Shown here: one piece after another, positions 8,899-45,611 of the stretch
How the letters are laid out: every line of letters begins with the position of its first letter
How positions within the stretch are numbered: the first letter of the stretch is position 1
NCBI GenBank assembly: GCA_017462795.1
Contig: JAFTQL010000035.1
Span: 62,360 to 126,359, forward strand
DNA: 64,000 nt
Reading direction: 5' to 3'
DNA from: Clostridia bacterium
Lineage (GTDB): Bacteria > Bacillota > Clostridia > Oscillospirales > CAG-272
Position numbers and translations under genes: made by a program
The notes under the pieces: model-generated
What the model was told of the DNA's origin: nothing
The model's input: the letters and a program-made list of their open reading frames with translations, nothing else
The model's database searches: none

Positions 8899-10836
8899 TT
8901 AATCTTCTTTTTTGCGCTTTGCAACAGCTACCGCACCCACTGCCAATGTCACAACAGATACTGCCGCGAATGTTACTGTAGAGCCGCATCCGCCGTCAGC
9001 CTTATCGGTGGTAACAGATGACGTTCCGTTTGCCTCGGCATCGGTGGTTGCCTGAGTGCCGTTGTTTTCGGTAGTTGAGTCATTTGTATCAACAGCCCCT
9101 GTGTCATTCGCCTCTGTATCTTTGGGCTCTTCCTTTACCTTAACAACGCTTGCTGGAGTTACGATAACATTCTCGCCTGTCTTGCCCTCGGGCCATACAA
9201 GTGTGCCCTTTGCCGCTTCCGCGTCGCCTGCTATAACGGTTACGTGGTCGATAAGAACCTTGACGTTAGGTCCGCCCGAGCTTGTTCCCAGCATAAAGGA
9301 GAAATCTGTTGCGAGAAGCGAGCTCTGAGGAGTTACCTCTATCGTCTTATCTCCCGAGGTAATGGTAGCGCTATCGAGCTTACGGTTTACAAAGTGGAAC
9401 TGATAGGTTACAAACTCAAAGTTATCTCTTGCGTCGTTGATAGCCGCTCCCTGCTCTGCCGTGTATCCGTCCTTACGGGTAGCGGAGTCAAATCCGTTGG
9501 AAGACTCGTTGGTCTGGTCGTAACGGATGCAGATATCGCCCGAATGAGTCGCAAGACCTGTAGTCTCATCAAGTGTTGTGTTGGGGCAGAGGCAGAGATA
9601 TCTCTTGTTATTTGCTTCCACAAACTTAAACTCTATCTCAATGGTGAAATGGCGGTTATACTCGGGAATAACTATACCCGAAGGAACAAGGTAAACCTTG
9701 GTGGAAGCGCCCTCAAGATACAGACCCTGCTCAGTATACGCATACTTTGCGTCGCTGTCAGCGCCTTCCTCGGGCTTTGTTACATAGTAACCTACGCTTG
9801 CGAGGTCGGTCACCTTGGTAAAGTCAACATGGTGAAGAATAGCCCCGTCAACGTATTCGGTAAGAGGTGTGTCCTCAAAACCGAGAATCTCTGTGGACTT
9901 TGCAATAGCGCGGTTCGCGTCGAAGAGCACAGGTGTGATCGTGATAGGCGTGTCGGGAGTGGAGGGAGTGTCGGGGGTGTCGGGAGTAACAGTACCGCCA
10001 TTGTCTATGTACGTCTGCTTGAGATCAACAGAATACTTAGTAGCGGTAGCGGTCTTAACAGTAACGTCGGAAACGCATCCGTCAAAGTTGGTATATACTG
10101 TTCCGTATACCTCACGGAGACCGAGAGCGAAATTACCCGCGCCGATGGCTACATCCGTGATATCAAGCTCAATAGTCTTGGTCGTGTCGTTTGCGAGAGT
10201 CATGGTAAGCTTGGTCATGGTCTTGCTTGCGGCATCAAAGGTGAAGTCATAGATAACAGCACTCGTGCCTTCAACGATTGCCTGTGCGATAGCGCTGTTT
10301 GTGGCAATGGTCTGCTTGTTCCAATACAGATGGTACTTATTGGTATCATCGTAGCATATCTTTATGGACGACTGATTTTCATCCGTCATCTCGGCACAGT
10401 AGTTCCATGCTCCGGCACTGTTAACATTAGCCGAGTTATCGGTTCCGACACCGAATACCAACCATGTATAGTTCTTGCTGGAGGGAGCTATGGTGGTTGC
10501 CGCACCCTCTGTATTAGAAGCCCAATTGTAATGGGTGGTGGTCATCTTAACAGAAAGAGTAACATTTTCCGTGATTGCCGTAAGATCGTAGTTGGCGGGT
10601 GTGAGCATAACAGCCGCTCCGCCTTGAACAAACGCATGCAAAAGCAGACCGTTCTGAGTAAGGCTTGTCGTACTTGCCTTAAAGGGAGTCGCGGAGTTGT
10701 TCTGGTTTACCACAGCTTTAACACCGAGATCAACTGTCGTGGTTTCAGCGGCAGAGACAAACGGTACAGCCACGGATGCGAGGAGAAGCACCATAAGTGC
10801 CGTTGCAAGGATACGCTTAAAAAGTTTTGTTTTCAT
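8899..10836 (-). CDS. Cassette A anchored member: secreted protein of unknown function with C-terminal GGCGS-TM-KRKK tail
   Basis: 645 aa. Signal peptide ...SVAVPFVSA|AE. The N-terminal domain is paralogous to 14037-15266 (LLLHAFVQGGAAVMLTPANYDLTAITENVTLSVKM vs GLYIKAFCQGAAGIMITHEQYDMTELTEDYTISVTM). A TPDTPDTPSTPDTP linker leads to a second beta-rich domain ending ..VLIDHVTV, then a T/D/N/E-rich linker. C-terminus: ADGGCGSTVTFAAVSVVTLAVGAVAVAKRKKED. Confidence 0.8.
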   Translation of the reverse strand: MKTKLFKRILATALMVLLLASVAVPFVSAAETTTVDLGVKAVVNQNNSATPFKASTTSLTQNGLLLHAFVQGGAAVMLTPANYDLTAITENVTLSVKMTTTHYNWASNTEGAATTIAPSSKNYTWLVFGVGTDNSANVNSAGAWNYCAEMTDENQSSIKICYDDTNKYHLYWNKQTIATNSAIAQAIVEGTSAVIYDFTFDAASKTMTKLTMTLANDTTKTIELDITDVAIGAGNFALGLREVYGTVYTNFDGCVSDVTVKTATATKYSVDLKQTYIDNGGTVTPDTPDTPSTPDTPITITPVLFDANRAIAKSTEILGFEDTPLTEYVDGAILHHVDFTKVTDLASVGYYVTKPEEGADSDAKYAYTEQGLYLEGASTKVYLVPSGIVIPEYNRHFTIEIEFKFVEANNKRYLCLCPNTTLDETTGLATHSGDICIRYDQTNESSNGFDSATRKDGYTAEQGAAINDARDNFEFVTYQFHFVNRKLDSATITSGDKTIEVTPQSSLLATDFSFMLGTSSGGPNVKVLIDHVTVIAGDAEAAKGTLVWPEGKTGENVIVTPASVVKVKEEPKDTEANDTGAVDTNDSTTENNGTQATTDAEANGTSSVTTDKADGGCGSTVTFAAVSVVTLAVGAVAVAKRKKED

Positions 10837-12509: not shown

Positions 12510-13760
12510 TCATTCTTTTATGAATGTAATAACGACATCCGACAAAAGAAGGAAATGGTCGGTATGACCCGTGTCGATAGCGCGGGCGTTGCTGCCCTCG
12601 ATACCCGCTGAGAAGATGATATTGTCGAACATCTGTCCGTTCTTGGTAGTCACAATATTCGTGCCCGCGTTGTTTGCCTTGGTGCTTCCCGGGAAGGCAT
12701 CGTCAAAATCGGACCATGTCTGCCAGTTAAAGTCACCCGCAACGATATAATGGCTATGGTTCTTTGCCTGTTCGTATATCTCGGCGAGCTGAGTTTTGAT
12801 AGTTCCCTGGTCATTGTGTGAGGAATAGAAGGCAAATTCTTCTCCTTCGACCTCGATGATCGTTTCAAGGAGCACACAGTTATTTTTTGAATTCATAACT
12901 GTCATTGGATACTCTTTGATTTCCTTGATAGGATATTTGGAAACTACTCCGACACCGCACCACCATTCCTCGCCTGCGGGAACATGGGTGCCGTTTGTCT
13001 CGTAAACACCGCTTGTCGCCTTACCGTACGCATAATAGTACTTCTGTCCGTTTCTGCTCTCAAGAGACTCCGCAATGATCCTGAGCGTATCCTGTCCCCA
13101 ATTTCGATTGGTGTTATAGTCTATCTCCTGAAAGGCGATAATGTCGGCGCCGTTATCATAAATATCGTCGGCTATCTTTGTGAAATCGGGGCTTCTTGAA
13201 TAGCTGTTACCAAGCTCGTGCGCGCCGCCCTCGTGAAGATTGAAGGTGGCAACCGTAAGCTCGATGTGCTTGTCGGTGTCGGCAACCGTCTTTCGCGTGG
13301 GAAGACCGGAAATACTCCATGTGTTGCCATCCTGCTTAAGAAGTTCCACAAACATCTCAGCGGCAGTCTCGACAAGATCCTCGTTCACACCGTAAAGAGC
13401 TATCTTTGTTCCTACCGCTGTGATAAGCAGCTCACGGTCAGCAAGTGACTCCGTGTTTGACGCTCTGTTCGTTTCTCCTATGAGTATCTCCTTTTCCCTC
13501 TCGGAGGCGGAATCATTTGTATATGGGATCGTGACACCTGTAAGCTCCTTTATCCTCTCGGATATAGCGACAGCCGTCTTTCTCATGGAGCGGTCGCCCG
13601 ACATGGAAAATACTATCTGATACTCAGAAGCTCCGTCAGCGCAGATGACCGCGCCCGTATCGTTATTGCTCTCCGTGTCATCAGTATTGCCTCCGCATGC
13701 GGTAAGCAGACACATGAGAAAGGCGAGAATCATTACTGTAATTTTTTTAATGATCTTCAT
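12510..13760 (-). CDS. Cassette A exported EEP-fold (endonuclease/exonuclease/phosphatase) phosphoesterase lipoprotein
   Basis: 416 aa. Lipobox LLTAC|GG. The N-terminal ~140-aa accessory domain contains ..EILIGETN... The EEP motifs are TVATFNLHEGG, IIAFQEID, GDFNW and the C-terminal GHTDHFLLL. Confidence 0.8.
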   Translation of the reverse strand: MKIIKKITVMILAFLMCLLTACGGNTDDTESNNDTGAVICADGASEYQIVFSMSGDRSMRKTAVAISERIKELTGVTIPYTNDSASEREKEILIGETNRASNTESLADRELLITAVGTKIALYGVNEDLVETAAEMFVELLKQDGNTWSISGLPTRKTVADTDKHIELTVATFNLHEGGAHELGNSYSRSPDFTKIADDIYDNGADIIAFQEIDYNTNRNWGQDTLRIIAESLESRNGQKYYYAYGKATSGVYETNGTHVPAGEEWWCGVGVVSKYPIKEIKEYPMTVMNSKNNCVLLETIIEVEGEEFAFYSSHNDQGTIKTQLAEIYEQAKNHSHYIVAGDFNWQTWSDFDDAFPGSTKANNAGTNIVTTKNGQMFDNIIFSAGIEGSNARAIDTGHTDHFLLLSDVVITFIKE

Positions 13761-13879: not shown

Positions 13880-14008
13880 TCAAAGCTCTTCGATGCCTAC
13901 GGACATGTTGATGTCGTCAGCCTGTATACCGTTACTCAATGCAATGATATCCTTGCTTTCAAGAGCTATAGCGATCACAACGGGAGTTGTATATGTATTC
14001 TTTTTCAT
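13880..14008 (-). CDS. Small ORF A (42 aa), member of a three-copy peptide family
   Basis: Below the ORF-track size cutoff; own translation: MKKNTYTTPVVIAIALESKDIIALSNGIQADDINMSVGIEEL. AGGAG lies ~9 nt upstream. It shares Y-[TI]-x-P-x(9)-[KEQ]-D-I-[IM]-x-x-S with the ORFs at 30253-30399 and 41214-41354. Confidence 0.55.
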   Translation of the reverse strand: MKKNTYTTPVVIAIALESKDIIALSNGIQADDINMSVGIEEL

Positions 14009-14036
14009 AATCTTATTCTCCTTTTCCATATTAGGA

Positions 14037-15266
14037 TCAAGCCACGGTAACGCTGATTTCCTTAGCCGCGCTCACATACTTATTGCCTGCCGCGTCGGTC
14101 ACATAGGCGCGTACAACAAAGGTGTAAGACTTACCTGCCGAAAGACCTGTAACCGTCATAACTCCGAGATAACCGTCTGTTGCGGTAACGGTCTCCCCTG
14201 CCGCCTTGATAGATGTGTAAACGGTGGTAGAGCTGAGTATCTTTGCGCCCTTTGTACTATCCTTCAAGGATATCTCAAAGCCGTGAGATGCGTAATTTGC
14301 AAGCTCAGCCTCGGTCATGTTCAGCTCGGATACAACACGCAATGTAGTATTGTCGCTACTGAGCTGTCCGCCCTTTACGGTAGCGCGGCAGTTCTGGATA
14401 TCTGCGTAGCGCTCCGCGAAGTCAACGGAGTATTTGGTTTCACTTGACGTTTTTATAGAAATATCGGAAATCCAACCCTCCATATACGTCCACGCTGTAT
14501 CATCATATAACTCACGAAAACCTAAGCAGAAATTACCGTCATTGCCGAGAGATATAGGAGTTCCAAGGGTGTGCGTCCACACTTTTGATGTGTCACTCGC
14601 AAGAGTCATTTTTACTGTTGAAATTTGTTTGGTATCCACATCAACAAGAAAATCATATATGATTGCGATCTCGCCGTATATTACGTTTTTTGCAATTACA
14701 GATGTTGTTCCTGTAAGGAGAGCATCGCCGCGCGCCCAATATGTTTCAGTCCCCTCCTGATTACCACACACCTTGAGCGCATTTTTGGTATCATCCTGCA
14801 TATCCGATAAAAAGCCCCATTCACCGGCTGCGTCTACATTGCTTGAAATGTCGCTTCCTGCTCCGAATATCAGGTATGTACGATTTTTTCGGTTGGGCTT
14901 ATTGGTTTGAGTAGCACTCTCATTTGTTCCTGACAAATTCGTATGCTTTGATAACATTGTTACAGAAATCGTATAATCTTCTGTTAATTCCGTCATGTCA
15001 TACTGTTCGTGAGTGATCATAATACCTGCCGCACCTTGACAGAAGGCCTTAATATAAAGTCCATTGTTTGTCAGCATAGACTTACTTGCTTTAAATTCTT
15101 TGTCATTTAAGGTTGATGCATAACTGTTATATGAGCTTTGAACTGTCTTAACACCAACATTATCCGCATAAATCGTCTTGGTACTTTCTTCTGCTGAAAC
15201 GCTGAGGGGTAAAGCAGCAAGTGTTACACACAAAACTGCCAATATTAAAGATATTACCTTTTTCAT
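14037..15266 (-). CDS. Cassette A free member: secreted protein, N-terminal domain paralogous to 8899-10836, C-terminal shared ~100-aa module
   Basis: I prefer the start at 15266 (MKKVISLILAVLCVTLAALPLSVSA|EE) over the track start at 15356. C-terminal module: ..TLRVVSELN..GFEISL..TTVYTSIKAAG..SYTFVVRAYVTDAAGNKY. It has no anchor. Confidence 0.8.
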   Translation of the reverse strand: MKKVISLILAVLCVTLAALPLSVSAEESTKTIYADNVGVKTVQSSYNSYASTLNDKEFKASKSMLTNNGLYIKAFCQGAAGIMITHEQYDMTELTEDYTISVTMLSKHTNLSGTNESATQTNKPNRKNRTYLIFGAGSDISSNVDAAGEWGFLSDMQDDTKNALKVCGNQEGTETYWARGDALLTGTTSVIAKNVIYGEIAIIYDFLVDVDTKQISTVKMTLASDTSKVWTHTLGTPISLGNDGNFCLGFRELYDDTAWTYMEGWISDISIKTSSETKYSVDFAERYADIQNCRATVKGGQLSSDNTTLRVVSELNMTEAELANYASHGFEISLKDSTKGAKILSSTTVYTSIKAAGETVTATDGYLGVMTVTGLSAGKSYTFVVRAYVTDAAGNKYVSAAKEISVTVA

Positions 15267-15385
15267 TCGTGTTTTTCCTTTCTGCTGTCTGTTACAGCAA
15301 TAAATTTTTATTCCAAACCGCTTGGGCAGGCGGTTAAAAAATACTTGATAGATCAAAATTTGTAATTACTTCCGTTATATTTTCT

Positions 15386-27851: not shown

Positions 27852-28901
27852 TTAAATTACAAGATCGGTAATAATAGGTAAATGATCGGAGGGATATACG
27901 TGTACGCCGTCCGAGGTAGTGTACTCATAATCACCAACCCGATATTCAGCCACCTTATCCTTCAAAGCGTCGCTGACAAAACAGAAATCTATTCTGTCTC
28001 CGTTTCCGCTGTTACCGTCAATCGCCTGATAGTCCTGTCCCTGTGTTTCGACTCTGAACGCGCTGTTCCAAGTGTCACTGACTACGGTCTTTTTCGCGAT
28101 CAGTCCCGAATCGTTCCAGCCGCTATCCGTAACGGTACTGTAGAAATTTTTCCATCCCGTACCGTAATCCAAGCCGTTGGGAGCATCGTTAAAGTCCGCG
28201 GTCATAATGACCTTGTCGGTGCCATACTCGACCATAAGCTCCCCGACAAGCCTTTGCAGCATCTGCATCTGAGCGCAGCGCTCAAAGAACCTGAGCCTGA
28301 AAAGCAATTTTTCAACATCAGTCTTAGACTCATAATTGCCGTTGTTGTGTCCCCTGTGCTGGAGATGGGTATTAACATATATAATATCCTCTCCATCAAT
28401 ATCAAGCACAACATAATTCATAAGTCTTGAAGCGAGGCTGTAGCTATTGGGACTTGGCATTCCGTTCTTTTTAAGACCTGTGCCCTCATAATGTCCCAGA
28501 GCCGCAAGCTCATCCGATGTCATTTTTCCATCGGAAATAAGTCCGTCATAAGTCAGCGCAACCGTGGAATTAGTTCCGTCCGAGGTAAGCCAATTCCAGC
28601 CGTGATGCTTTACCTTAATACCGTTCTTTATATAAACAGAGCAGTATTCCATAGTATGAGCTTTGTGAACAGTATCGGGAATATAGCGTGTATATCCCTC
28701 CCCCAGAGATATATTGTTCACCCAATTATTGACGTCCTCCTGAAGTCCGACGATATCGGGCTGAAATGACAGTATCTGTTCAGCCACTGCCCGGACTCTG
28801 TTCTTTGACTGTCGGTTAAGCTCCCCCGTTCCGCCCTTGTGGCCATCCACGTCATAGGTATCCATGCGGACGTTGAAGCTGAGTATTCTGAGTTTTTTCA
28901 T
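27852..28901 (-). CDS. Cassette B signal-less EEP-fold phosphoesterase
   Basis: I prefer the ATG at 28901 (MKKLRILSFNVRMD), 3 nt after the upstream stop. Motifs IVGLQEDV, ADFND and YPSDHLPIITDL. Close paralogue of 33502-34683. Confidence 0.8.
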   Translation of the reverse strand: MKKLRILSFNVRMDTYDVDGHKGGTGELNRQSKNRVRAVAEQILSFQPDIVGLQEDVNNWVNNISLGEGYTRYIPDTVHKAHTMEYCSVYIKNGIKVKHHGWNWLTSDGTNSTVALTYDGLISDGKMTSDELAALGHYEGTGLKKNGMPSPNSYSLASRLMNYVVLDIDGEDIIYVNTHLQHRGHNNGNYESKTDVEKLLFRLRFFERCAQMQMLQRLVGELMVEYGTDKVIMTADFNDAPNGLDYGTGWKNFYSTVTDSGWNDSGLIAKKTVVSDTWNSAFRVETQGQDYQAIDGNSGNGDRIDFCFVSDALKDKVAEYRVGDYEYTTSDGVHVYPSDHLPIITDLVI

Positions 28902-28903
28902 AA

Positions 28904-30238
28904 TCAGTCTTGTGTCAGTGTTTCGGTCTTTGTTGCTCCGCAAGAAATATTTCCGTCAGCGTCACTCATATAAGTAGTTACCGTTGCGGAAACAGTAGCC
29001 TCTGCGGGAACTCCCGCAATTACCAGAACATACAGATAATCTCCGTCGATCACCGTCTCACCCGACCGAGTCTGCTTTGTAGTGTAAGTAATTCCGCCAC
29101 CCTGAACAGATGTGTAGACGGTATTGCAGGATACCTTCTGAGCCTTGGTAACTCCGCCATATGTAACGGTTACGTAAAATCCTATATCATTTATCTCTCC
29201 GAGATCCTCTGTATCAAGAACTCCGACCATACGGTAATCAACAAGTCCGTCAACCACCCTGTCCTGAATACCGTAGTAGCGTGTACTTGCGCTCACATCT
29301 GACGTGCAATCCGATACGTTCAATGTTTTTGTTGAGCCACTCTTCAAATTAGCATAATTCGAAGGATTATACTCTGACGGCAGTACAGTACAGCTTGTGA
29401 CTGTGGTGTTGGCATTTACCAAACCTATAATACTACCAGCTGTCGAGGTACCCATCTCGCCTTCAAGACTCACACTACAATTTGAAACAGATACAGATCC
29501 CGCATTTACACAATATCCTATTATACCGCCGACATTACTCGTGCCTTTTACAGTTCCGTTAAAAGAACAGTTGCTGATAGTTACAGTCGTTGATGTATTT
29601 TTTGATGTATCGTTTGCAACAGCGTTCACAGAGCCTATAATACCGCCAACCTGACCTGCGCCCTTAACATTACCGTTTATAATGTGAACATTATCGATAA
29701 TCAGATCGCTGTCATAAACATTTAAGTTCATTCGTGAGCCTACAATAGCACCAACATTTGCAACAGCGGCAGCAGATTCGCCGTTACTGCTTGTATTTTC
29801 CGCTGACGCATCAACAGTAATATTGATCAATGTCAGGTTCTTGATAGTACCTCCTGCAAAACGGAACATACCGGGACTTGATTTGCAGTTTGTTACATTG
29901 ATTCCCGCAACCGTATGACCGTTACCATCAAATGTACCGTCAAAGATTATACCCTTCCACGTTTTACCCGTATAGTCGATATCCGCAGTCAGCTTTATGT
30001 ATGCACCCTTCAGATTAGTATGAGGGCTTGTAGAGCTGTTGAATGCCGCAAGCTCATCCGCAGAACCGATAGTAAGCTCTATAGACGCGAAATCATCTTT
30101 TGTATAACCGCTGGTGCCGGCAAGCCATGACGACATGGAAACCGGTGTTCTTTGCGCGCTGTCAGTCGCAAATACTCCCATGGGAAGAAGAGTGAGAAGC
30201 ATTGCGCAAAGTATTAAGCAACATATAATTCTTTTCAT
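28904..30238 (-). CDS. Cassette B free member: secreted GLUG-type beta-helix repeat protein ending in the shared C-terminal module
   Basis: I prefer the start at 30238 (MKRIICCLILCAMLLTLLPMGVFA|TD, with GGGGGG upstream). FDGTFDGNGHTVAGINV is followed by repeated ..N[CV]..NG.V.G...VGGIIG. units. The C-terminal module reads ..YRMVGVLD..IGFYVTV..NTVYTSVQGGG..GDYLYVLVIAGV.. Confidence 0.75.
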   Translation of the reverse strand: MKRIICCLILCAMLLTLLPMGVFATDSAQRTPVSMSSWLAGTSGYTKDDFASIELTIGSADELAAFNSSTSPHTNLKGAYIKLTADIDYTGKTWKGIIFDGTFDGNGHTVAGINVTNCKSSPGMFRFAGGTIKNLTLINITVDASAENTSSNGESAAAVANVGAIVGSRMNLNVYDSDLIIDNVHIINGNVKGAGQVGGIIGSVNAVANDTSKNTSTTVTISNCSFNGTVKGTSNVGGIIGYCVNAGSVSVSNCSVSLEGEMGTSTAGSIIGLVNANTTVTSCTVLPSEYNPSNYANLKSGSTKTLNVSDCTSDVSASTRYYGIQDRVVDGLVDYRMVGVLDTEDLGEINDIGFYVTVTYGGVTKAQKVSCNTVYTSVQGGGITYTTKQTRSGETVIDGDYLYVLVIAGVPAEATVSATVTTYMSDADGNISCGATKTETLTQD

Positions 30239-30252
30239 CGTCTTACCCCCCG

Positions 30253-30399
30253 TCAAAACGGCCATTGGTAAACACCGTAACCGGTGCTTGTGCCGTTGCT
30301 GTCATCAAGCGATAACGTACCGCCCGATGTCACCATAATGTCTTCCGTTTGTGTACAGATCAATGTGCACTCGGGTGAAATATATTCTTTCATATTCAT
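30253..30399 (-). CDS. Small ORF B (48 aa; 46 if started at the second ATG), member of the three-copy peptide family
   Basis: Own translation: MNMKEYISPECTLICTQTEDIMVTSGGTLSLDDSNGTSTGYGVYQWPF. AAGGA is upstream. The stop lies 14 nt before the start of 28904-30238. Confidence 0.55.
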   Translation of the reverse strand: MNMKEYISPECTLICTQTEDIMVTSGGTLSLDDSNGTSTGYGVYQWPF

Positions 30400-30471
30400 T
30401 TCTTTCCTTATTAATTAATTATTTTGATTCACATCAAGGGGCGGTGTACGCCCCCCGATTTTATAAGGATA

Positions 30472-31947
30472 TTACTTTCTCTTTTTGCAAACTACCGCAC
30501 CCGCGCCTGCAAGTACCGTCATTATAACAATGCCTGCGCCGATCGCTGATCCGCATCCGCCTTCATCTGTTACAGCCTCTGTTCCGTCTCCGCCTTCTGT
30601 GGCAGCAGAACCGTTATCTGTTGTATTTGCGGTGCCATCCGTTTCGGTATTGCTGTTGTTACCTGTATCTGTACTATCGTTATTGTTATCGGTATCGGCA
30701 CTGCCGTTATTGTTGTTATTATTGTTATTGTTTTCGGAAGATGCTGTCTTGCTGATAAGAGTATCCGCAAGAAGCGCTGTCGCGAGCGTTGCGTCCTCTG
30801 CCGCCGATGTTGTACCCTCGTTTCCGCTCTCGGTCACATTACCTGACTGAACAGCATAACCGAACACTGCATTTGCGCTGCCGTCTGCTGCCGCCGCACC
30901 CGTAGTTATTGCACCGAAGTTTTTGCAGTTGGTAACACTTACCTTATGAGAATCGGCAGTTCCGATAATTGCTCCGACATAATAGTTGTTTGTCTTGACA
31001 CTACCGTTATTGATACAACCGCTGATCACGCTTGCCTCAGTTGCCTGAGTGGAGTAACAGCGCGCAATGATTCCGCCTGTTCCCCTTGTATTCTTATCCA
31101 TAGCCTTGGATTCGACAGCACCCGCGTTACGGCAGTTTGTAACAGTGATCTTTACATTGGATGTACCTACGATACCGCCCGCATCGCGTGCAGCGGCGGT
31201 TATCGCTCCGGTATTTGTGCAGTTGGTAACTGTATGAGTGGAAACGCCTGTTGCCTCGTTGAACTCATCCTGCGTTACCTTTTGTCCCGCAACATTATAT
31301 GAACCTACACCCGTAACACTGGAATAACCTACTATACCGCCTATCATTGCGCTCGTACCCTCAACGGTTGCTTTGTTCCAACAGTTATCAACAGTAGTGT
31401 TCATGCCCTTATCTCCGGTAATACCGCCGACTATACCGCCTGTTCTGTTGCCGCCCTTAAAAGAGCAGCCCTCTCCAAGAATAACATTCTTGATGGTTGC
31501 ACCCTGAACATTTCCGAACAGACCTACGTGCTGAGTAGTTCCGTAATCAACCACGAGGTTATCAATTGTATAGCCCTGACCGTCAAATGTACCTCTGAAG
31601 GGCTTTGTGTTTGCCTCGGAAGCGCCGCCTCCGATAGGCTTGAAGTTGTTGACACCTGTCATATCGATGTCATTTGCAAGATAGAGCGTGATCCCGCTGA
31701 AGCGGCTCTCCGCTATGCTGACAGCGGTAAGCTCGAGAGCTGTGGATATCTTGAATTCCTTTGCCTCGGTCTCTGGATTTGCTATGTATTCCGCAACGCT
31801 GGGAATATTGGAAAGATCCTTCTGCTCCACTCTCGCGTCGGAATATCCTACTATGTCCGCTGTGATCTGCGCGTCTGCCGCCATGGCAGGAATGGCAATA
31901 CCCAATGCAAGAATTGCCGTAAGAATGAATGCGATTACTTTTTTCAT
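30472..31947 (-). CDS. Cassette B anchored member: secreted GLUG-type beta-helix repeat protein with C-terminal GGCGS-TM-KKRK tail
   Basis: 491 aa. Signal peptide ..GIAIPAMA|AD. FRGTFDGQGYTIDNLVV, then repeats with TGGIVGG, IGGIVGY, AGGIVGT, TGGIIAR and VGAIIGT. A poly-Asn/Thr/Asp linker (NNNNNNNNN) follows. C-terminus: DEGGCGSAIGAGIVIMTVLAGAGAVVCKKRK. Confidence 0.8.
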   Translation of the reverse strand: MKKVIAFILTAILALGIAIPAMAADAQITADIVGYSDARVEQKDLSNIPSVAEYIANPETEAKEFKISTALELTAVSIAESRFSGITLYLANDIDMTGVNNFKPIGGGASEANTKPFRGTFDGQGYTIDNLVVDYGTTQHVGLFGNVQGATIKNVILGEGCSFKGGNRTGGIVGGITGDKGMNTTVDNCWNKATVEGTSAMIGGIVGYSSVTGVGSYNVAGQKVTQDEFNEATGVSTHTVTNCTNTGAITAAARDAGGIVGTSNVKITVTNCRNAGAVESKAMDKNTRGTGGIIARCYSTQATEASVISGCINNGSVKTNNYYVGAIIGTADSHKVSVTNCKNFGAITTGAAAADGSANAVFGYAVQSGNVTESGNEGTTSAAEDATLATALLADTLISKTASSENNNNNNNNNGSADTDNNNDSTDTGNNSNTETDGTANTTDNGSAATEGGDGTEAVTDEGGCGSAIGAGIVIMTVLAGAGAVVCKKRK

Positions 31948-31999
31948 ATTTTCCTCCTGAATTTAATTTATTTTAGAGCGTTTTTACGCATAGCTCTCT

Positions 32000-33466
32000 T
32001 TATGAAAGGCTCTTGTAAAGCGACTCGAACTGACTGTTCCAGGATGTTACATTTCCCGAATAGTATGTGGAGATAGAGCCCTGTACCTTATCATCTCTCC
32101 AATAGGTATCCATCTGATACATATTGTAAGGATCGGGGGTAATGTTTGAACACATAGCCGCAAGATAGGTCAGAACGGACGTATCGCGGATTATCTCCAG
32201 CATATCCATCTGCCTTGGGCTGTTTGCGTACTGAAGTCCGAGTGTCTGCTCATAATATGCGGGCACTGCCTCGTAATGAGAATAGTAGGATTTTACCTCT
32301 ATCACCTTTCCGACAAGCTCAACATCAGCCGCGTTCTTCATTATCATGATCATCATTGCCGATGCGCCCGCAGGTGTGTAATATCTTCCCTGCTCCTCAT
32401 TATACATGGGCACGGGTGCAAGACCCCAATCAAAATCACTGTCACGGAAAAATTCTCCCGTTGACAAAAATCCGTGGTAGAACAGCGAGCGTCCCGCCTC
32501 AAATACGCCTCTTCCGGCATCCGAATCCGCAGATACCGTAACTACCATATTTGATACGTTGTTTTCAAAAACGGAGCTGAGATAGTCGTACATCTCAATA
32601 AAGCTCTCGCCTGCCGCTTCTTTCATATATATGTTACCGTCTTTGGTGCTTCTCTCGGTGACATTTGCGTTGAACGCTGTCATAAAGCCGCGGCTCGCCA
32701 CGCAGTGTCCCACATATCCGAAGGTATCCGAGGCAAGATTGCCCACACCGCCGTCAGCAGCTCCGCCAACCTTCTTTGCCATGCCGAACATGACCTCAGC
32801 CGTCCACTTATTTGCCTCAACAAGATCGTAAATATTGTCAAGACCGTGGTTGTCAAGTATTTCCTCATTGAAGAAGACAGCGCCCATACCCGAATAGTCT
32901 GTCAGAGACGCGTCGCTTCTGATACCGAAAAGCTTGCCGTTGATACCGTAGGTATTAAGCATGTCCGAAAGATACCAGGGCTTATCCGTCTCAAGCACCT
33001 CGACAGTTGTCAGATCAAGAACGAGTCCGTTTTTGAGGGCATATCCATAGGACGCGCTGGTCTCCGCCATGATAAGGTCGAACTCCGCGGTGCTGTCCAT
33101 CGCCATGGCGAGCAAACGGTTATTGAACGTCGCTCTTGTTGCCCAGTTGCCGTCAAGCTGAGTATAAGACATGTTGATACCAAGATGGGCTTTCACCTGA
33201 GCGTCTACTCCGAAGACCGCCTGACTTACAACCGTTCCGCCTGCCTCATTGGCATAGTCCAGAGTATCGTGAGTGGGTAAAAGTATTTTTATATCTTTTC
33301 CCTTGTTGTCCTCAGCGGCAACACTAAGAGGCAGTCTGTCATCATGGGTCTCAACCGTTCCCGGGGACGTATTGGAGCTTCCCTCATCCGGACCCTTACA
33401 TGACACGATAATGGGGATCAACATAAGCACCGCAAGCGCTAACGCCAGAACTTTGATCTTTCTCAT
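32000..33466 (-). CDS. Cassette B lipoprotein, solute-binding-protein-like (orphan)
   Basis: 488 aa. Lipobox IIVSC|KG. Paralogous to 10909-12444 and 45612-47093. Confidence 0.75.
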   Translation of the reverse strand: MRKIKVLALALAVLMLIPIIVSCKGPDEGSSNTSPGTVETHDDRLPLSVAAEDNKGKDIKILLPTHDTLDYANEAGGTVVSQAVFGVDAQVKAHLGINMSYTQLDGNWATRATFNNRLLAMAMDSTAEFDLIMAETSASYGYALKNGLVLDLTTVEVLETDKPWYLSDMLNTYGINGKLFGIRSDASLTDYSGMGAVFFNEEILDNHGLDNIYDLVEANKWTAEVMFGMAKKVGGAADGGVGNLASDTFGYVGHCVASRGFMTAFNANVTERSTKDGNIYMKEAAGESFIEMYDYLSSVFENNVSNMVVTVSADSDAGRGVFEAGRSLFYHGFLSTGEFFRDSDFDWGLAPVPMYNEEQGRYYTPAGASAMMIMIMKNAADVELVGKVIEVKSYYSHYEAVPAYYEQTLGLQYANSPRQMDMLEIIRDTSVLTYLAAMCSNITPDPYNMYQMDTYWRDDKVQGSISTYYSGNVTSWNSQFESLYKSLS

Positions 33467-33501
33467 AAAAACTTTTCTCCTTTTTATTTTATTTTTTTAC
33501 A

Positions 33502-34683
33502 TCAACCGATAGCAAAATCCACGATGACAGGAAGATGATCCGAAGGATAAACGTCCACATTCTGTTTTTGAGTTCCCTCCGCCAGAGCAAGTGTCCATTT
33601 TACCTTTCCCACCTGATATAGCATGACTCTGTTTTTAAGCTCCTCGGACACAACACAGAAATCTATCCTTCCGTTGAGCTTATTCTCTTTATCGGATACA
33701 TACCCCTGACCTTGCTTGCTGATATCAAACGCGGAATTCCAGCTATGCTCCAGCTTACTGCCTTGCTTGGCGATCTCCATGCTGTCGAAAAGATACTTTT
33801 CCACGTTTTTGAAAAATCCGCTTGTAGATCCGTCATTGAAGTCGCCGGACATAATAACAGACGCATCCGTATATGTCTTTTTCAGCTCCTCTATCTGCGC
33901 CTTTACCATTTCATACTGCAAGCCTCTCTCGCAATAGCGGAGCATGTACAGCGGATGATCGGTATATTCTCCTTCGCTGTAGCCGCGGTGCTGGAAATGA
34001 GCGTTTACATAAATAACATCCTTGCCGTTGACCTCAAGCACCACGTAATTCATTATTCTCGCCGCCAGCTTGTTACCGTAGCTCTTGTTGTTATCATTTC
34101 TGTCGACATATGTGGTCTTAAGTCCCGCGTCATTGACGATGCCGATATCCATAAGCGCAAACGCGTCCATGTCGTAGTATCCGTCACCGTCCGTAAGCTC
34201 CGCGTAGGTCGCTGCCACTGTCTGATTTGTTCCGTCGGACGTCAGCCATTTCCAACCGTGAGCCTTAACCGTGATACCCTTTTTTACGTAGATAGACAAA
34301 TATTCGTGAGTTGATGAGTCCATCTTTACGTCGGGAATATAACGTGCATATACGTCCCCGCTTATGTTGATGTTATCCACCCAATTCTGTACGTCCTCCT
34401 GAAGTCCTATAACATCGGGATCATAGGAAAGTATCTGCTCGCGCACAGCCTGCACACGGTTTTTTGACAGGGCGTCGAGCGTACCCAGGACTGTTGTATT
34501 CAGATCCATGCGCACATTGAAGCTGACAAGTCTGAGATTCGGGTCGCCGATGATCTCCTCTGTCGAGGGTGCCTCTTGCGTATCGGTGGTATCCGCGGGA
34601 TGATCTCCCGTGTCATTACACGCGCCTGCCATAGGCAACAGCAGGCAGATACACAGAAGAAAGACTAAAATTCGCTTTTTCAT
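33502..34683 (-). CDS. Cassette B exported EEP-fold phosphoesterase lipoprotein
   Basis: 393 aa. Lipobox MAGAC|ND. LRLVSFNVRMD, VIGLQEDV, GDFND and YPSDHLPVIVDF. Confidence 0.8.
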   Translation of the reverse strand: MKKRILVFLLCICLLLPMAGACNDTGDHPADTTDTQEAPSTEEIIGDPNLRLVSFNVRMDLNTTVLGTLDALSKNRVQAVREQILSYDPDVIGLQEDVQNWVDNINISGDVYARYIPDVKMDSSTHEYLSIYVKKGITVKAHGWKWLTSDGTNQTVAATYAELTDGDGYYDMDAFALMDIGIVNDAGLKTTYVDRNDNNKSYGNKLAARIMNYVVLEVNGKDVIYVNAHFQHRGYSEGEYTDHPLYMLRYCERGLQYEMVKAQIEELKKTYTDASVIMSGDFNDGSTSGFFKNVEKYLFDSMEIAKQGSKLEHSWNSAFDISKQGQGYVSDKENKLNGRIDFCVVSEELKNRVMLYQVGKVKWTLALAEGTQKQNVDVYPSDHLPVIVDFAIG

Positions 34684-34723
34684 CCTTTTCTCTCCTTATG
34701 TATTAATGTATAAAGCGTGTATG

Positions 34724-35635
34724 TCATATCTCATCAAAGACTCTCACATAGTCAACCTCAAAGACATCGGGAAGGGTTGCCTCAAACAGCTCGGGTACAG
34801 GCTCGCCCGCACAGCATCCCTTTGCCGTAACCTCTCCCGCTTCGCCCTGAGCCTTGAATACTCTGTTATAGCCATGGCACTCAGTCGTAACCAGCAGGAA
34901 TTGCTCAACCTGCGATACCGCGCACTCGGGCGCCATCTGCTTGCCGACTATCTTGCCGTCCGCGTAAAAGGTATATCCCTCGGGAGTCCAGTGTACCGCG
35001 TAATTGTGCCAGCCGTCATCCGTCTCTTCAAGCGGAAACTCATAGTGACCTGCCCACTTGCCCTCGGCGCCGTATCCGCCCCAGCCACATCCGCACACCA
35101 TAGTGCCGAACTTGTGCTGACGGTAGTTTTCCATGATGTCGCATTCCACTCCGGCAACGGCAGGATCGGGATGAGCGCCTATGGATGGAGACTGAAGCCA
35201 GAAGGCACAGTGCCACCCGTCGCATCTCGGCAGACGGCAACGGATCTCATAGTATCCGTATTTGTGCATAAACTTGAACTCATCCTTTGCTCCAAAGGGC
35301 CAGAACTTTTTGGAAGTTCCGTCACGAGGATTATCAAATGTCAGACCTCCTGTCTGTAGATGAGCGGAACAGAAATCATCTCCCTTGCGGAGAAGATGTA
35401 TCTTAAGAGTGTCGTCACTTACCTCCACTCCCTCGGTGGTAAATGCCGGCGAACGATAGCCCCAGAAGTTGAGACGGTAGTTCCACTTACTCTCATCAAG
35501 GGCGTTTCCGTCAAACTCGTCGTTCCAGACAAGCTTCCACCTCTTATCGGCGGGAAGCACACTGGGCGCGTGTCCCGGGACAACTACTTCTTCATTCATG
35601 TTGATCTCTTTCGGTTTTACCTGTACAAAAGGCAT
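34724..35635 (-). CDS. GH16-family glycosidase (beta-glucanase/laminarinase-like), cytoplasmic
   Basis: 303 aa. WKLVWNDEFDGNALDESKWNY and the catalytic E-x-D-x-x-E motif as GVECDIMENY. No signal peptide. It lies 40 nt upstream of cassette B, so the two are probably co-transcribed. Confidence 0.8.
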   Translation of the reverse strand: MPFVQVKPKEINMNEEVVVPGHAPSVLPADKRWKLVWNDEFDGNALDESKWNYRLNFWGYRSPAFTTEGVEVSDDTLKIHLLRKGDDFCSAHLQTGGLTFDNPRDGTSKKFWPFGAKDEFKFMHKYGYYEIRCRLPRCDGWHCAFWLQSPSIGAHPDPAVAGVECDIMENYRQHKFGTMVCGCGWGGYGAEGKWAGHYEFPLEETDDGWHNYAVHWTPEGYTFYADGKIVGKQMAPECAVSQVEQFLLVTTECHGYNRVFKAQGEAGEVTAKGCCAGEPVPELFEATLPDVFEVDYVRVFDEI

Positions 35636-36765: not shown

Positions 36766-37599
36766 TTATCTGTAATATTTTCCCGTTCTCTTCAGGTAAT
36801 CGATGAGCATCATGGGCCAGTCTGTCTGTATCATATCAAAGCCTCTGTCAGCAAGCCAGCCCCAGCCCTCGTCCTCCGATACGGTAAGCGCCGTGTCGTC
36901 CGAGTGCCCAGCCGCTATCTGCCTTTTGCAGTCGTATATGATGGAATTCACCCATACCAGCTTGCCGTCCTTGTGCATTCTCTCAATAAAAGACTCTGAT
37001 GCCACATCGTCGGTATCATCATAAAACAGTACCTCAACTCCAACGTAGTTGATGTCTCTGCCCGACAGCTGCTCATGTCCGTCAAAGCTACGACTTACAA
37101 CGGGCATATAGGCAAGATCGGGAGCAAGCTCCTCAAGAACGCTCAGCACCTCCGGTGTGGGTGGCGCTTTTACAACGATCTGATCAAGCATATCATGCTT
37201 TTTTATAGCCCTGTATATCGCCTCGGGATTGCCCCAGAACTTATCCACATTGATAAAGCATCTTCCCTTGAAATGCTCAAGAAGATCATCAAATCTTTCT
37301 ATTCCAAACTGGGTGGGAACCCTATCTATATTCAGATATTTTAGCTCCGATACCTTATTCCATGAAAGCTCCGTAAGCTTTTCGGAAATGCCGAGATGAG
37401 CGCGTTCCATACCGGGATGGAAAATTATCAGCGCTCCGTCAGCCGTAATATTCACGTCTGTCTCTATCATATCCGCGCCCTGCTTCAGACCGATCTCATA
37501 GGATGCAATGGTGTTGCAAGGAATATTGCCGCCGAAAACTCCTCTGTGCGCAACGACCAGCAGCTTCTCCTCGGCGGATCTGCGTATATCAAATCTCAT
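36766..37599 (-). CDS. Glycerophosphodiester phosphodiesterase (GDPD) family protein
   Basis: 277 aa. LVVAHRGVFGGNIPCNT, GADMIETDV and IIFHPG. No signal peptide. Confidence 0.8.
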   Translation of the reverse strand: MRFDIRRSAEEKLLVVAHRGVFGGNIPCNTIASYEIGLKQGADMIETDVNITADGALIIFHPGMERAHLGISEKLTELSWNKVSELKYLNIDRVPTQFGIERFDDLLEHFKGRCFINVDKFWGNPEAIYRAIKKHDMLDQIVVKAPPTPEVLSVLEELAPDLAYMPVVSRSFDGHEQLSGRDINYVGVEVLFYDDTDDVASESFIERMHKDGKLVWVNSIIYDCKRQIAAGHSDDTALTVSEDEGWGWLADRGFDMIQTDWPMMLIDYLKRTGKYYR

Positions 37600-37638
37600 T
37601 TTTAAAGCTCTCCCTATACTGTATTTTGTATATTTGCA

Positions 37639-37667
37639 ATTATACTACAAACACCGCTGTTTTGCAA
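37639..37667 (-). promoter_or_regulatory. Candidate sigma-A promoter of GDPD gene 36766-37599
   Basis: Minus strand reads TTGCAA-17 nt-TATAAT. Confidence 0.6.
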
Positions 37668-37708
37668 TAGAAAATTTGTTTTTTCGTAAAAATACCTGCG
37701 CGAGAATA

Positions 37709-38416
37709 TTACTGTTTGGCTATCGCGTAGGAAACAAGCAGATCGGGAAAATTGACGGTCATTCCGTCAACGCCGCTATCATACGCAAGCTTCATCAGCT
37801 CAACGTCGGCAACGCCCCACGCCCGTACACTGTAACCCATCTCATGCCACGCCGATACCTTCTCTGCGGTAACATTCTCCGCCTGCGGACACAGCTGCTC
37901 TCCGCCTATCTCCTTCATTCTCGCAATAGCTTCGTCATCAAAATCAGCGGCAAGGTGTCCCACCCTGTATGAGGGACACAACGCCTTGAATGTCCTGATA
38001 CACTCAAACTTGAAGGAGGTCACCACTGTTTTTTCCCGCATATTGTACTTTTCAAGAAGCTCAAGAACCTCTTTTTCCGTTCCCGGCTCTTTAAGCTCGA
38101 TGGCAAAATTAATGTCGCGGAAGCCGAAATAACGCAAGAAGTCCTCAAACCTCACAATAATATCCTCGGTTGCCGTCTTGTAATTTCTGACCCTCATCTC
38201 CAGAAGCTCCGCATAGGTATAGTCTCCCACGCCTCCCGTCTCTCCGACCACACGCTCCAGAGTCTTATCATGAAACAGCACCAGAACTCCGTCCTTGGTC
38301 CGGCGCACGTCGGTCTCAATGCCGTTAGCGCCCAGCTTAAGTCCCAGATAAAAGGAACTCATAGTATTTTCGGGCGCGTATTCGCTTGCGCCCCTGTGTG
38401 CATACACCACAAACAT
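37709..38416 (-). CDS. Glycerophosphodiester phosphodiesterase (GDPD) family protein
   Basis: I prefer the ATG at 38416 (MFVVYAHRGASEYAPENT, with AAGAGG 8 nt upstream) over the track's TTG at 38437. GANGIETDV and VLFHDKTLERV. Confidence 0.8.
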   Translation of the reverse strand: MFVVYAHRGASEYAPENTMSSFYLGLKLGANGIETDVRRTKDGVLVLFHDKTLERVVGETGGVGDYTYAELLEMRVRNYKTATEDIIVRFEDFLRYFGFRDINFAIELKEPGTEKEVLELLEKYNMREKTVVTSFKFECIRTFKALCPSYRVGHLAADFDDEAIARMKEIGGEQLCPQAENVTAEKVSAWHEMGYSVRAWGVADVELMKLAYDSGVDGMTVNFPDLLVSYAIAKQ

Positions 38417-38433
38417 AATCAAAACCTCTTTGC

Positions 38434-39357
38434 TCAATAATTGTATGTCCTGTAAGACCTTCGGGCGAGATATCGGTCTATAAGCCGCTGTATTCCCCGC
38501 ATGTCCGACGGGGACGCAAATATCTCAGGGAAATTGGTAGTAGCGCCGTTATAGCAATAATTCTTCTTGCGGTATGCCTCAAGGTCAAATCTCGGCTCAA
38601 TCGAAGTATCGCCGCAAAAGGAATAGTCCTGTCCCTCGGCGCGCTTGCCCGTGATGGCGCAGTACAGCATAAGAGACGTTATGTATCCCGACAAAAGGTT
38701 GGGATGGAATCCGTCCTCCTCGGTCTTACTGATTATAAAGCTGTTTTTATCATAGCTCATAACGGCATCGGGAACGGCTGTTCTTCCCGTAATGATATCG
38801 GATACCAAGCCGCCCCAGTCAACAACGGTAATGCCTTTATCCTCAAGCCCCTTCAGGCTGTTCAGAATTTTTTTCTGCCTTACCCTGTACGCTGATATCC
38901 CGTAGGATGCCACATTACAGAGATAAACAAATTTTACGTTCGGATTTTCACCGCGGAAGATATTTGTTATTTTTTCTATATTCTCCGCAAACTTGTCATC
39001 GGAGCAGCCTCTGCTTCCCGCCGAGATCACAACGTAATCAAATTTGCGCTCTGTCAGATAGCTCAGGTGATCCACCCCGTCACATCCACGATCCGCACAG
39101 CAGTTTCCACCAAACATATCATCCAGAGTGTGTCCCCCAAAGGTCCACGAGGTGACCTCCACCTCTTCTCCGTTGGCTCGGCAAAGCTGATAAAAATAGC
39201 CTTTATCGCCCGTGCGTTCCTTTTGACCGAGTACCTTCTGAATTATCTTGAACACGGTCTGACTGTAATGGACAAAGGAATTACCTATAAAGATAACACT
39301 TTTTCCATCAAGAGATACCGATGTGCCCTTATCTTCTGCCGATCCTGTATCTATCAT
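38434..39357 (-). CDS. SGNH-like hydrolase-fold protein (DUF4886-like), cytoplasmic
   Basis: 307 aa. VIFIGNSFVHYS (block I-like) and EDGFHPNLLSGY (block V-like). The family assignment is from memory of the motif pattern only. Confidence 0.55.
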   Translation of the reverse strand: MIDTGSAEDKGTSVSLDGKSVIFIGNSFVHYSQTVFKIIQKVLGQKERTGDKGYFYQLCRANGEEVEVTSWTFGGHTLDDMFGGNCCADRGCDGVDHLSYLTERKFDYVVISAGSRGCSDDKFAENIEKITNIFRGENPNVKFVYLCNVASYGISAYRVRQKKILNSLKGLEDKGITVVDWGGLVSDIITGRTAVPDAVMSYDKNSFIISKTEEDGFHPNLLSGYITSLMLYCAITGKRAEGQDYSFCGDTSIEPRFDLEAYRKKNYCYNGATTNFPEIFASPSDMRGIQRLIDRYLARRSYRTYNY

Positions 39358-39417
39358 ATCCTTTTATACATCTCCTTTGACTTATTTACTCGTATTTCGG
39401 GATACGAAATGCTGAAT

Positions 39418-41214: not shown

Positions 41215-41354
41215 CAGAGCCTCATCAGATCGTCTATACTTATACCTGTGATATCATTGTCACTGTAAGCGCTCGTTGCCAGTGACGCGGTGATTATATC
41301 CTGCATATCAAAGATCTTTGCGTCTGCTATAGGACAAATATATTTCTTTTTCAT
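41214..41354 (-). CDS. Small ORF C (46 aa), member of the three-copy peptide family
   Basis: Own translation: MKKKYICPIADAKIFDMQDIITASLATSAYSDNDITGISIDDLMRL. GGAG is 8 nt upstream. Its TGA overlaps the ATG of the downstream lipoprotein gene (TGATG), which indicates translational coupling. Confidence 0.55.
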   Translation of the reverse strand: MKKKYICPIADAKIFDMQDIITASLATSAYSDNDITGISIDDLMRL

Positions 41355-41388
41355 TTTTATTCTCCGTTCAATTAAAGATTAGATTAAA

Positions 41389-43796: not shown

Positions 43797-43817
43797 GTCA
43801 ATTCTCCTTTGATTTTT

Positions 43818-45590: not shown

Positions 45591-45611
45591 TTTTATCCCC
45601 CGATGAAATTA

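Follow-up and report, generated by a model that had tools for sequence, protein, structure and literature searches.

Short peptides encoded between exported-protein genes in a carbohydrate-utilisation region of a Clostridia genome belong to a large family of candidate RiPP precursors

The 64,000-nucleotide stretch of a Clostridia genome analysed here (the window) is a carbohydrate-utilisation region in which three very short reading frames recur, each inside an operon and flanked by genes for exported proteins, and the question raised by the locus is what such small products might be doing there. A preliminary description of the sequence had pointed to these minus-strand ORFs, and the analysis confirmed all three. 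Copy A (13880-14008, minus strand) encodes an acidic peptide of 42 amino acids followed by a stop codon, MKKNTYTTPVVIAIALESKDIIALSNGIQADDINMSVGIEEL, which can be divided into a conserved half, MKKNTYTTPVVIAIALESKDIIALS, and a tail, NGIQADDINMSVGIEEL. Copy B (30253-30393, minus strand) encodes 46 amino acids starting with MKEYISPECT, or 48 if read from MNM at an upstream ATG, and is divided in the same manner into MKEYISPECTLICTQTEDIMVTS and GGTLSLDDSNGTSTGYGVYQWPF. Copy C (41214-41354, minus strand), also of 46 amino acids, begins MKKKYICPIADAK, with MKKKYICPIADAKIFDMQDIITAS as the conserved half and LATSAYSDNDITGISIDDLMRL as the tail. The pattern Y-x-x-P-x(9)-[KEQ]-D-I-[IM]-x-x-S fits the three copies, which align from Tyr to Ser without gaps. 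A GGAG-like ribosome-binding site precedes each of them; for copy A, the GGAG read from the sequence lies at 14018-14021 (minus strand), 9 nt before the ATG. A 49-amino-acid reading of copy A from an ATG at 14029 is possible, and its orthologue P0004 begins at the position that corresponds to 42 amino acids. The term "unannotated", used earlier for all three, holds for copy A, for which only ENA gene calls exist, while copies B and C are recorded at NCBI as the hypothetical proteins IJY08_03465 and IJY08_03520 of a Clostridia metagenome-assembled genome (MAG).

Among the 1745 six-frame ORFs of the window, the best non-self phmmer match of each copy was another of the three, with pairwise E-values of 0.2-2, and no further copies of the peptide were detected in the window. 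A word-index homologue search queried with the three copies returned only the copies themselves. By contrast, when a HMMER profile built from A, B and C was searched exhaustively against 1.84 billion representative proteins, 116 proteins were matched at E≤1e-3. The similarity inside the window is only suggestive; it is the outside evidence that is decisive. About 113 of these matches are peptides of 31-60 amino acids aligned from residue 1. The sole long proteins, P0005 (2543 amino acids) and P0075 (274 amino acids), are repetitive and of low complexity, with several short profile matches each, and were judged spurious.

A second profile, built from 115 sequences, matched 478 proteins, which lack Pfam domains without exception and are all either unnamed or labelled "hypothetical", and copy A matches this profile with an E-value of 4.5e-14. 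In total, 312 non-redundant family members were collected. Their consensus is MKKxYxxPEhEhhxFxxEDIITTSGG, followed by an acidic tail rich in Gly, Asp, Glu and Asn with a median length of 17 amino acids. The Pro is invariant, and the Tyr, Asp and Ser are each conserved in at least 90% of members; T precedes the invariant Ser of the pattern in 76%, and the residue after the Ser is G in 64%. Several consensus residues have been lost from the window copies, namely the E after P, the F and the TT before S. Pfam and NCBIfam scans of the three copies and the 115 family members yielded no matching family, the weak NCBIfam matches being confined to lasso and sactipeptide precursor models. A PDB sequence search gave nothing relevant for the family, and literature searches on the motif EDIITTS found no relevant report.

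To place the family in its genomic context, a profile of 20 canonical members was scanned against one genome per species, which gave 79 loci, hosted mostly by Ruminococcus, Lachnospiraceae, Roseburia, Oscillospiraceae and Eubacterium from gut and rumen. Counting these scan loci, the first contigs (L001-L006) and the window, 101 intact family ORFs are found in 82 loci. The members at L001, L076 and L077 belong to Ruminococcus flavefaciens. A few loci lie on MAG contigs assigned outside Clostridia: L032, L035 (labelled Alistipes), L074 (Synergistaceae) and L069 (Bacilli). They reflect either mis-binning or horizontal transfer, and three of these four carry the full K-B-S-D-N operon described below.

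The three ORFs are clearly genuine coding genes under purifying selection. Copy A and its orthologue P0004 are 69% identical, with dN 0.23, dS 1.40 and dN/dS 0.16, and their 36 nucleotide differences fall 10/5/21 on the three codon positions. Compared with their homologues, copies B and C gave dN values of 0.27-0.60 with dS above 1.7 or saturated (for copy B, 0.27-0.55 with saturated dS). Across 90 distinct DNA blocks spanning the conserved Tyr to Ser, the entropy was 0.62, 0.44 and 1.47 bits at the first, second and third codon positions. Two of the checks proposed in the preliminary description, a search for homologues in relatives with their neighbours recorded and an estimate of dN/dS across orthologues, came out in favour of coding genes, with hundreds of intact homologous ORFs and a ratio of 0.16 for copy A. 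The idea that the ORFs are not genes at all, being chance frames or an RNA-level or RBS-context signal, could draw on the weak similarity inside the window, but it has virtually no chance of being correct: dN/dS lies well under 1, most of the variation falls on third codon positions, intact homologous ORFs number in the hundreds, and Rfam matches nothing across the whole window. The evidence of coding selection already refutes it.

The tails had been described as unrelated to one another. This does not hold: the window-type subfamily aligns over its full length, each tail type is kept in other metagenomes, and tails are conserved within subfamilies. Copies A and C share the tail motif [GS][VI][SG]I[DE][DE]L (MSVGIEEL and GISIDDL, respectively), which is also present in P0004, P0007, P0054 and P0068, and the tail of copy B, GTLxLD...GYGVYxWPF, recurs in P0006, P0009, P0017, P0025, P0091 and P0229, all from other metagenomes. 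Among the relatives of the window, tail type follows operon type. Cysteine is absent from the tails of A, B and C and present in only 17 of the 312 family tails.

The surroundings of the peptide genes in the window are rich in exported enzymes. The region encodes glycosidases (GH78, GH10, GH16, GH5, GH63-like, GH65, GH36 and GH127), several solute-binding lipoproteins, GDSL esterases, two GDPD enzymes, at least six EEP (PF03372) paralogues and five AraC regulators. EEP and GDPD phosphodiesterases are unusually dense here, which suggests that the substrate contains phosphodiester bonds. As reported earlier, copy A sits between a secreted-protein gene and an EEP lipoprotein gene. The upstream gene (14037-15356, minus strand) encodes a 439-amino-acid secreted protein without a Pfam family, a paralogue of the product of 8899-10836, and the downstream gene (12510-13760, minus strand) encodes an EEP-family lipoprotein (PF03372, E 3e-13; lipobox LLTAC). 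The same arrangement is found around P0004: locus L086 matches cassette A, the orthologue of the 439-amino-acid protein lies upstream of P0004 there (63% identity), and an EEP gene lies downstream of P0004 in L086-L088.

According to Pfam, the cassette B operon (27852-35635, minus strand) comprises GH16, EEP, a 488-amino-acid protein, a 491-amino-acid secreted or anchored protein, peptide B, a 453-amino-acid secreted protein and EEP. This order, with the peptide kept, is found in L097 and L089 (with GDSL after the second EEP), where neighbours are 45-87% identical. The cassette C operon (36766-47093, minus strand), likewise assigned by Pfam, comprises SBP, GDSL, a 403-amino-acid protein, EEP, peptide C, an EEP-lipoprotein with an in-frame TAG, DUF4886, GDPD and GDPD/DUF4996; its order is also found in L099 and L096, with neighbours 31-82% identical, and the copy C homologues P0068, P0007 and P0231, the last from a MAG with IJW55_* locus tags, occupy the same operon position. 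Loci L100 and L101 follow the same theme as the window cassettes.

Several further features of the window deserve mention in their own right. The stretch from 8899 to 47093 consists of repeated, diverged cassettes, with the paralogous pairs 8899-10836/14037-15356, 12510-13760/15386-16174, 27852-28943/33502-34683, 10909-12462/32000-33466 and 36766-37599/37709-38437. Downstream of copy C, the EEP-lipoprotein gene and the 180-amino-acid EEP fragment after it form one frame (39418-41214, minus strand), which is cut by a single TAG at about 40033-40035 (..LTELG*SEVRV..). The orthologues in L099 and L096 are single proteins of 598-609 amino acids with Tyr at the TAG position, and the TAG is either a nonsense mutation, making a pseudogene, or a sequencing error. 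Between the gene for the 491-amino-acid protein and copy B, a perfect GC-rich hairpin, GGGGCGGTGTACGCCCC, occupies 30438-30454. It scores as a terminator on the plus strand only; for the peptide transcript, it might act in attenuation or in mRNA stability. Promoter and terminator scans gave no convincing minus-strand signals beside the ORFs, and no operon inference was drawn from them.

We then called genes and clustered the neighbours in the fetched loci. In 72 of 79 cases, the gene directly upstream of the peptide shares its strand. Its product has at least 400 amino acids in 54 cases and a signal-peptide-like N-terminus in 47, and in 10 more it is cut off by the end of the contig; a 2588-amino-acid GH13 amylase/pullulanase is among these products. 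The product of the next gene downstream has a signal-peptide or TM-like N-terminus in 33 of 53 cases, and 19 have a lipobox. A BLAST cluster of upstream proteins ("cluster 0") was considered as a partner family and rejected, because it is domain-linked and heterogeneous.

Recurrent protein endings were observed among these neighbours. Many otherwise unrelated large secreted proteins encoded upstream share a C-terminal module of about 45 amino acids (..Y.PM.Y.Y.VLN....L.NL.KALYLY..AA..Y) without a Pfam match, found by a loose pattern in 17 of 72 upstream proteins (for example L010 2222-9988, and in L011, L022, L028, L043 and L061). Other upstream secreted proteins end in ..DISADLTC.L.F or ..YA.GY..V... 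Nineteen neighbouring small lipoproteins or N-terminally anchored proteins with long acidic or Ser/Thr-rich linkers end in a near-identical tag, xIELPFVPxx, and their genes adjoin the peptide gene in L010 (10150-10605), L022, L027, L035, L037 (10229-10915), L055, L061, L064, L068 (5392-5898), L070, L076/L077, L084 and L085. For this tag, no family was detected and literature searches on ELPFVP found no report. A second ending type of the tethered neighbours is DDGLDWSPLxPV[DN].

Besides the exported proteins, an operon recurs downstream of family genes. It encodes an HprK-like kinase (about 250 amino acids), a PqqD protein (86 amino acids; PF05402, E 4e-17), a protein resembling signal peptidase I (SpI-like, about 145 amino acids), an ABC exporter (about 575 amino acids; ABC_membrane plus ABC_tran) and an NTP_transf_5 protein (PF14907, E 7e-43). 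When the count was limited to the 45 loci with at least 6 kb of downstream sequence, 14 carried at least two of the HprK-like, PqqD, SpI-like and NTP_transf_5 genes, and about two thirds were without the operon. PqqD-like ORFs numbered 30 across the loci screened. Among 146 other downstream proteins, no further recurrent family was found, and neither a lasso cyclase nor a B2 protease.

The composition of this operon points to the linear polyphosphorylated peptides (LPP), a RiPP class whose clusters consist of the precursor gene lppA and genes for an HprK-like kinase (K), a discrete RRE (B), an archaeal-type SpI leader peptidase (S), an MsbA-like exporter (D) and an NTP transferase (N) (Popov et al. 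2026, Nat Commun, PMC13381572). In Paenibacillus, LppB binds the YxxP leader, LppK places up to four phosphates on Ser3 of the core, and LppS cuts after T-1 (PMC13381572). The LppA leader consensus is YxxPxVLxHQxIxFETxxS, in which F-3/E-2/T-1 mark the cleavage site and the Ser at core position 3 accepts the phosphate (PMC13381572). That study was carried out in Bacilli, with the final product not identified and its function unknown, and it tabulated Clostridial SpI/RRE clusters with the precursor given as "ND" (PMC13381572). The operons adjoining our family show the order lppA-K-B-S-D-N, ABC exporter included, as in the Roseburia locus L010 (13910-18232). The family SpI profile matches the characterised LppS with an E-value of 1.6e-19 and the uncultured-Ruminococcus SpI of the same study with 3.8e-38, and the family PqqD profile matches LppB with 1.9e-8. 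The K-B-S-D-N operon that adjoins many family members is homologous to the characterised lpp genes. The precursors themselves are also alike: they are short and basic at the N-terminus, carry a YxxP motif and, some 18-19 residues beyond its Tyr, a conserved Ser, and vary at the C-terminus.

There are also differences. When the peptide profile was compared with authentic LppA, only the first 11-13 residues matched (MKKxYxxPEV; E 0.004). The family leader reads PEhEhhxFxxEDIITTS, in contrast to PxVLxHQxIxFETxxS in LppA; the family has a Tyr-to-Ser spacing of 19, one more than the 18 of LppA, and FET, the cleavage motif, is out of register. Family tails are short and acidic, whereas those of LppA are rich in Gly, Asn and Lys, and the hosts are gut and rumen Clostridia instead of Bacilli. 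Moreover, LPP genes stand beside their machinery or in capsule loci, while most family genes, including all three of the window, are orphans in secreted-enzyme operons. No LPP-type gene cluster was detected next to the window copies by tblastn, family HMMs or Pfam. HprK-like, PqqD, SpI-like, NTP_transf_5, ABC exporter and rSAM genes are all missing from the 64 kb and from loci L086-L099, where the HMMs had no match, and none is listed among the Pfam genes of L100 or L101. The earlier statement that the window holds no maturase, peptidase or exporter was accordingly borne out by Pfam, by tblastn with the neighbour families and by HMMs for the HprK-like, PqqD, SpI-like and NTP_transf_5 proteins.

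The conserved N-terminal half is supported, on sequence grounds, as a putative RiPP-type leader with a [Y/W]xxP motif of the kind bound by PqqD-like recognition elements. The Tyr and Pro of this motif are present in A, B and C, and the region aligns to lasso and LPP leaders. The AF2 model of copy A, computed with the family alignment, is an extended chain without secondary structure, with a pLDDT of 87-89 over the first 20 residues, which is how a leader that docks by beta-strand addition should look. Which class of RiPP this leader would serve has then to be weighed. A lasso precursor might be considered, as the family leader resembles Clostridial lasso leaders (hhalign probability 76.5%, E 2.2e-5 over 19 columns): paeninodin-type and Clostridial lasso peptides, such as Butyrivibrio and Lachnospira LasA (PMC7533575), share the leader start MK-x-[W/Y]-x-x-P-E-h-E-h, the T near the junction with a following G, and HprK and NTP-transferase tailoring genes, and the PqqD of family loci is closest to lasso PqqD models. 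Nevertheless, the acidic acceptor expected at core positions 7-9 shows no peak, the frequency of D/E being flat at 0.23-0.30 over tail positions 5-11, and the 89 of 312 tails that fit the core pattern (G/A/S/C start, D/E at 7-9) are no more than acidic composition gives. In addition, 73 of the 312 tails are shorter than 13 amino acids, many being too short for a lasso fold, and the Asn-synthase-like cyclase and the transglutaminase-like B2 protein are not recurrent among the neighbours and absent from the window. On the acceptor-position statistics and the absent cyclase we rejected a lasso identity, which is very improbable.

The preliminary description had instead pointed to a resemblance to leaders of radical-SAM/SPASM-modified peptides, on account of the K-x-Y-x-x-P-type start. 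One locus does fit: in L045 (1073-2865), a 455-amino-acid rSAM/SPASM enzyme (CNARCFYCY plus a C-terminal Cys cluster) lies between two family peptides with Cys in their tails, so the leader family seems to be used there by a second type of maturase, and Radical_SAM gave two matches among the 146 other downstream neighbours. Within the family, such a pairing is rare and exceptional. The machinery that recurs is the HprK-like kinase, the RRE, the SpI peptidase, the ABC exporter and the NTP transferase, no window protein has a CxxxCxxC motif or a Radical_SAM Pfam match, and the near-absence of Cys from the tails leaves a sactipeptide or ranthipeptide type improbable for A, B and C. Double-glycine leaders of class II bacteriocins or ComC are similar in their acidic and hydrophobic pattern and in the S-G-G end seen in about half of the family (~51%), as in the TSGG of copy B. 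The GG is, however, not conserved, A having SNG and C SLA so that B alone among the window copies carries it, and the ABC exporters of the family operons have no C39 peptidase domain, their ABC_membrane domain beginning as early as residue 38, with none encoded in the window. The earlier proposal of a RiPP precursor therefore stands as regards a conserved coding family with a leader-type N-terminal half, found beside an RRE-containing operon in 14 of 45 loci, and falls as regards the rSAM type. The adaptor or chaperone role suggested alongside it keeps some probability, since the window copies have no local maturase.

With these considerations, we favour, at slightly better than even, the interpretation that the three copies represent orphan, divergent RiPP precursors of the LppA-like kind, with a leader that would be recognised by a kinase and a peptidase acting through an RRE and encoded elsewhere. 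By homology with Paenibacillus LPP, the leader (MKK-x-Y-x-x-P ... D-I-I-x-x-S) would lie extended on a PqqD-type RiPP recognition element via its YxxP motif, and the HprK-like kinase would (poly)phosphorylate a serine at the leader/core junction, for which the invariant Ser is the obvious candidate. The SpI-like peptidase would cut in an RRE-dependent manner, and the MsbA-like ABC pump would then export the subfamily-specific tail, which the NTP_transf_5 enzyme may decorate further. Family peptides are presumably substrates of the operon that adjoins them, and we infer that the window copies, with no maturase within 64 kb, would be processed in trans by an operon elsewhere in the genome. In the window, the peptide genes and those for secreted or lipoprotein phosphodiesterases, esterases and glycosidases are transcribed together, which would couple the making of the peptide to the expression of those surface enzymes. 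The retention of A-, B- and C-type peptides at the same operon position in other genomes counts in favour of an LppA-like precursor; the lack of maturation genes in the window and its relatives L086-L101, and in about two thirds of the loci with enough flanking sequence, counts against it, as do the match to LppA limited to 11-13 residues and the consensus residues missing from the window copies.

Strict placement between secreted-protein genes and tails that co-vary with neighbour type are unusual for RiPP precursors and would fit a partner-protein role equally well. The main rival, possible though less likely, is that the peptides are maturase-independent small acidic proteins with a direct effect on the exported products of adjacent genes, perhaps as adaptors or chaperones or by competing in a surface-tethering interaction, the leader-like half being a shared binding module and the tail being partner-specific. 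The position of the peptide gene directly downstream of a same-strand gene, most often for a large protein with a signal-peptide-like N-terminus, and ahead of one that often encodes a lipoprotein or tethered protein would be accounted for, as would the many loci without maturases and the tail types that track operon type. The xIELPFVPxx ending of the 19 tethered neighbours is also found on some peptide tails, with an identical PIELPLVPLR in L076/L077, but a motif of this LP type is present on only 17 to 26 of 98 tails. Furthermore, the peptide has no signal peptide and could reach exported partners only with the help of an exporter, its AF2 model shows no independent fold, and neither the YxxP leader nor the strongly enriched PqqD operons are explained by this reading.

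LPP RiPPs have been known since 2026, and the Clostridial precursor was left undetermined there. The family reported here, with more than 300 members and several per genome, is a candidate for the precursor of the Clostridial LPP branch. Such a Clostridial precursor family, with its different leader, its multiplicity per genome and its embedding in secreted-enzyme operons, is not described in the libraries or the literature searched. Its members obey an unexpected genomic rule, by which the peptide gene comes right after a large secreted-enzyme gene and before a lipoprotein gene in glycan-utilisation operons. This rule links a new RiPP chemistry with polysaccharide foraging in gut bacteria, and it gives peptide-enzyme pairs that can be tested. 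It is tempting, if speculative and on balance quite unlikely, to go further and suggest that in gut and rumen Clostridia the LPP-type peptides are one-per-enzyme accessories of the surface glycan-degrading apparatus instead of free-standing antibiotics. Once phosphorylated and exported, the tail would imitate the C-terminal tag of a co-encoded tethered lipoprotein (xIELPFVPxx and related endings) and so control the tethering or release of the enzyme at the cell surface, and A, B and C would be the equivalents for EEP/GDPD phosphodiesterase operons. If true, this would be the first biological role for LPPs.
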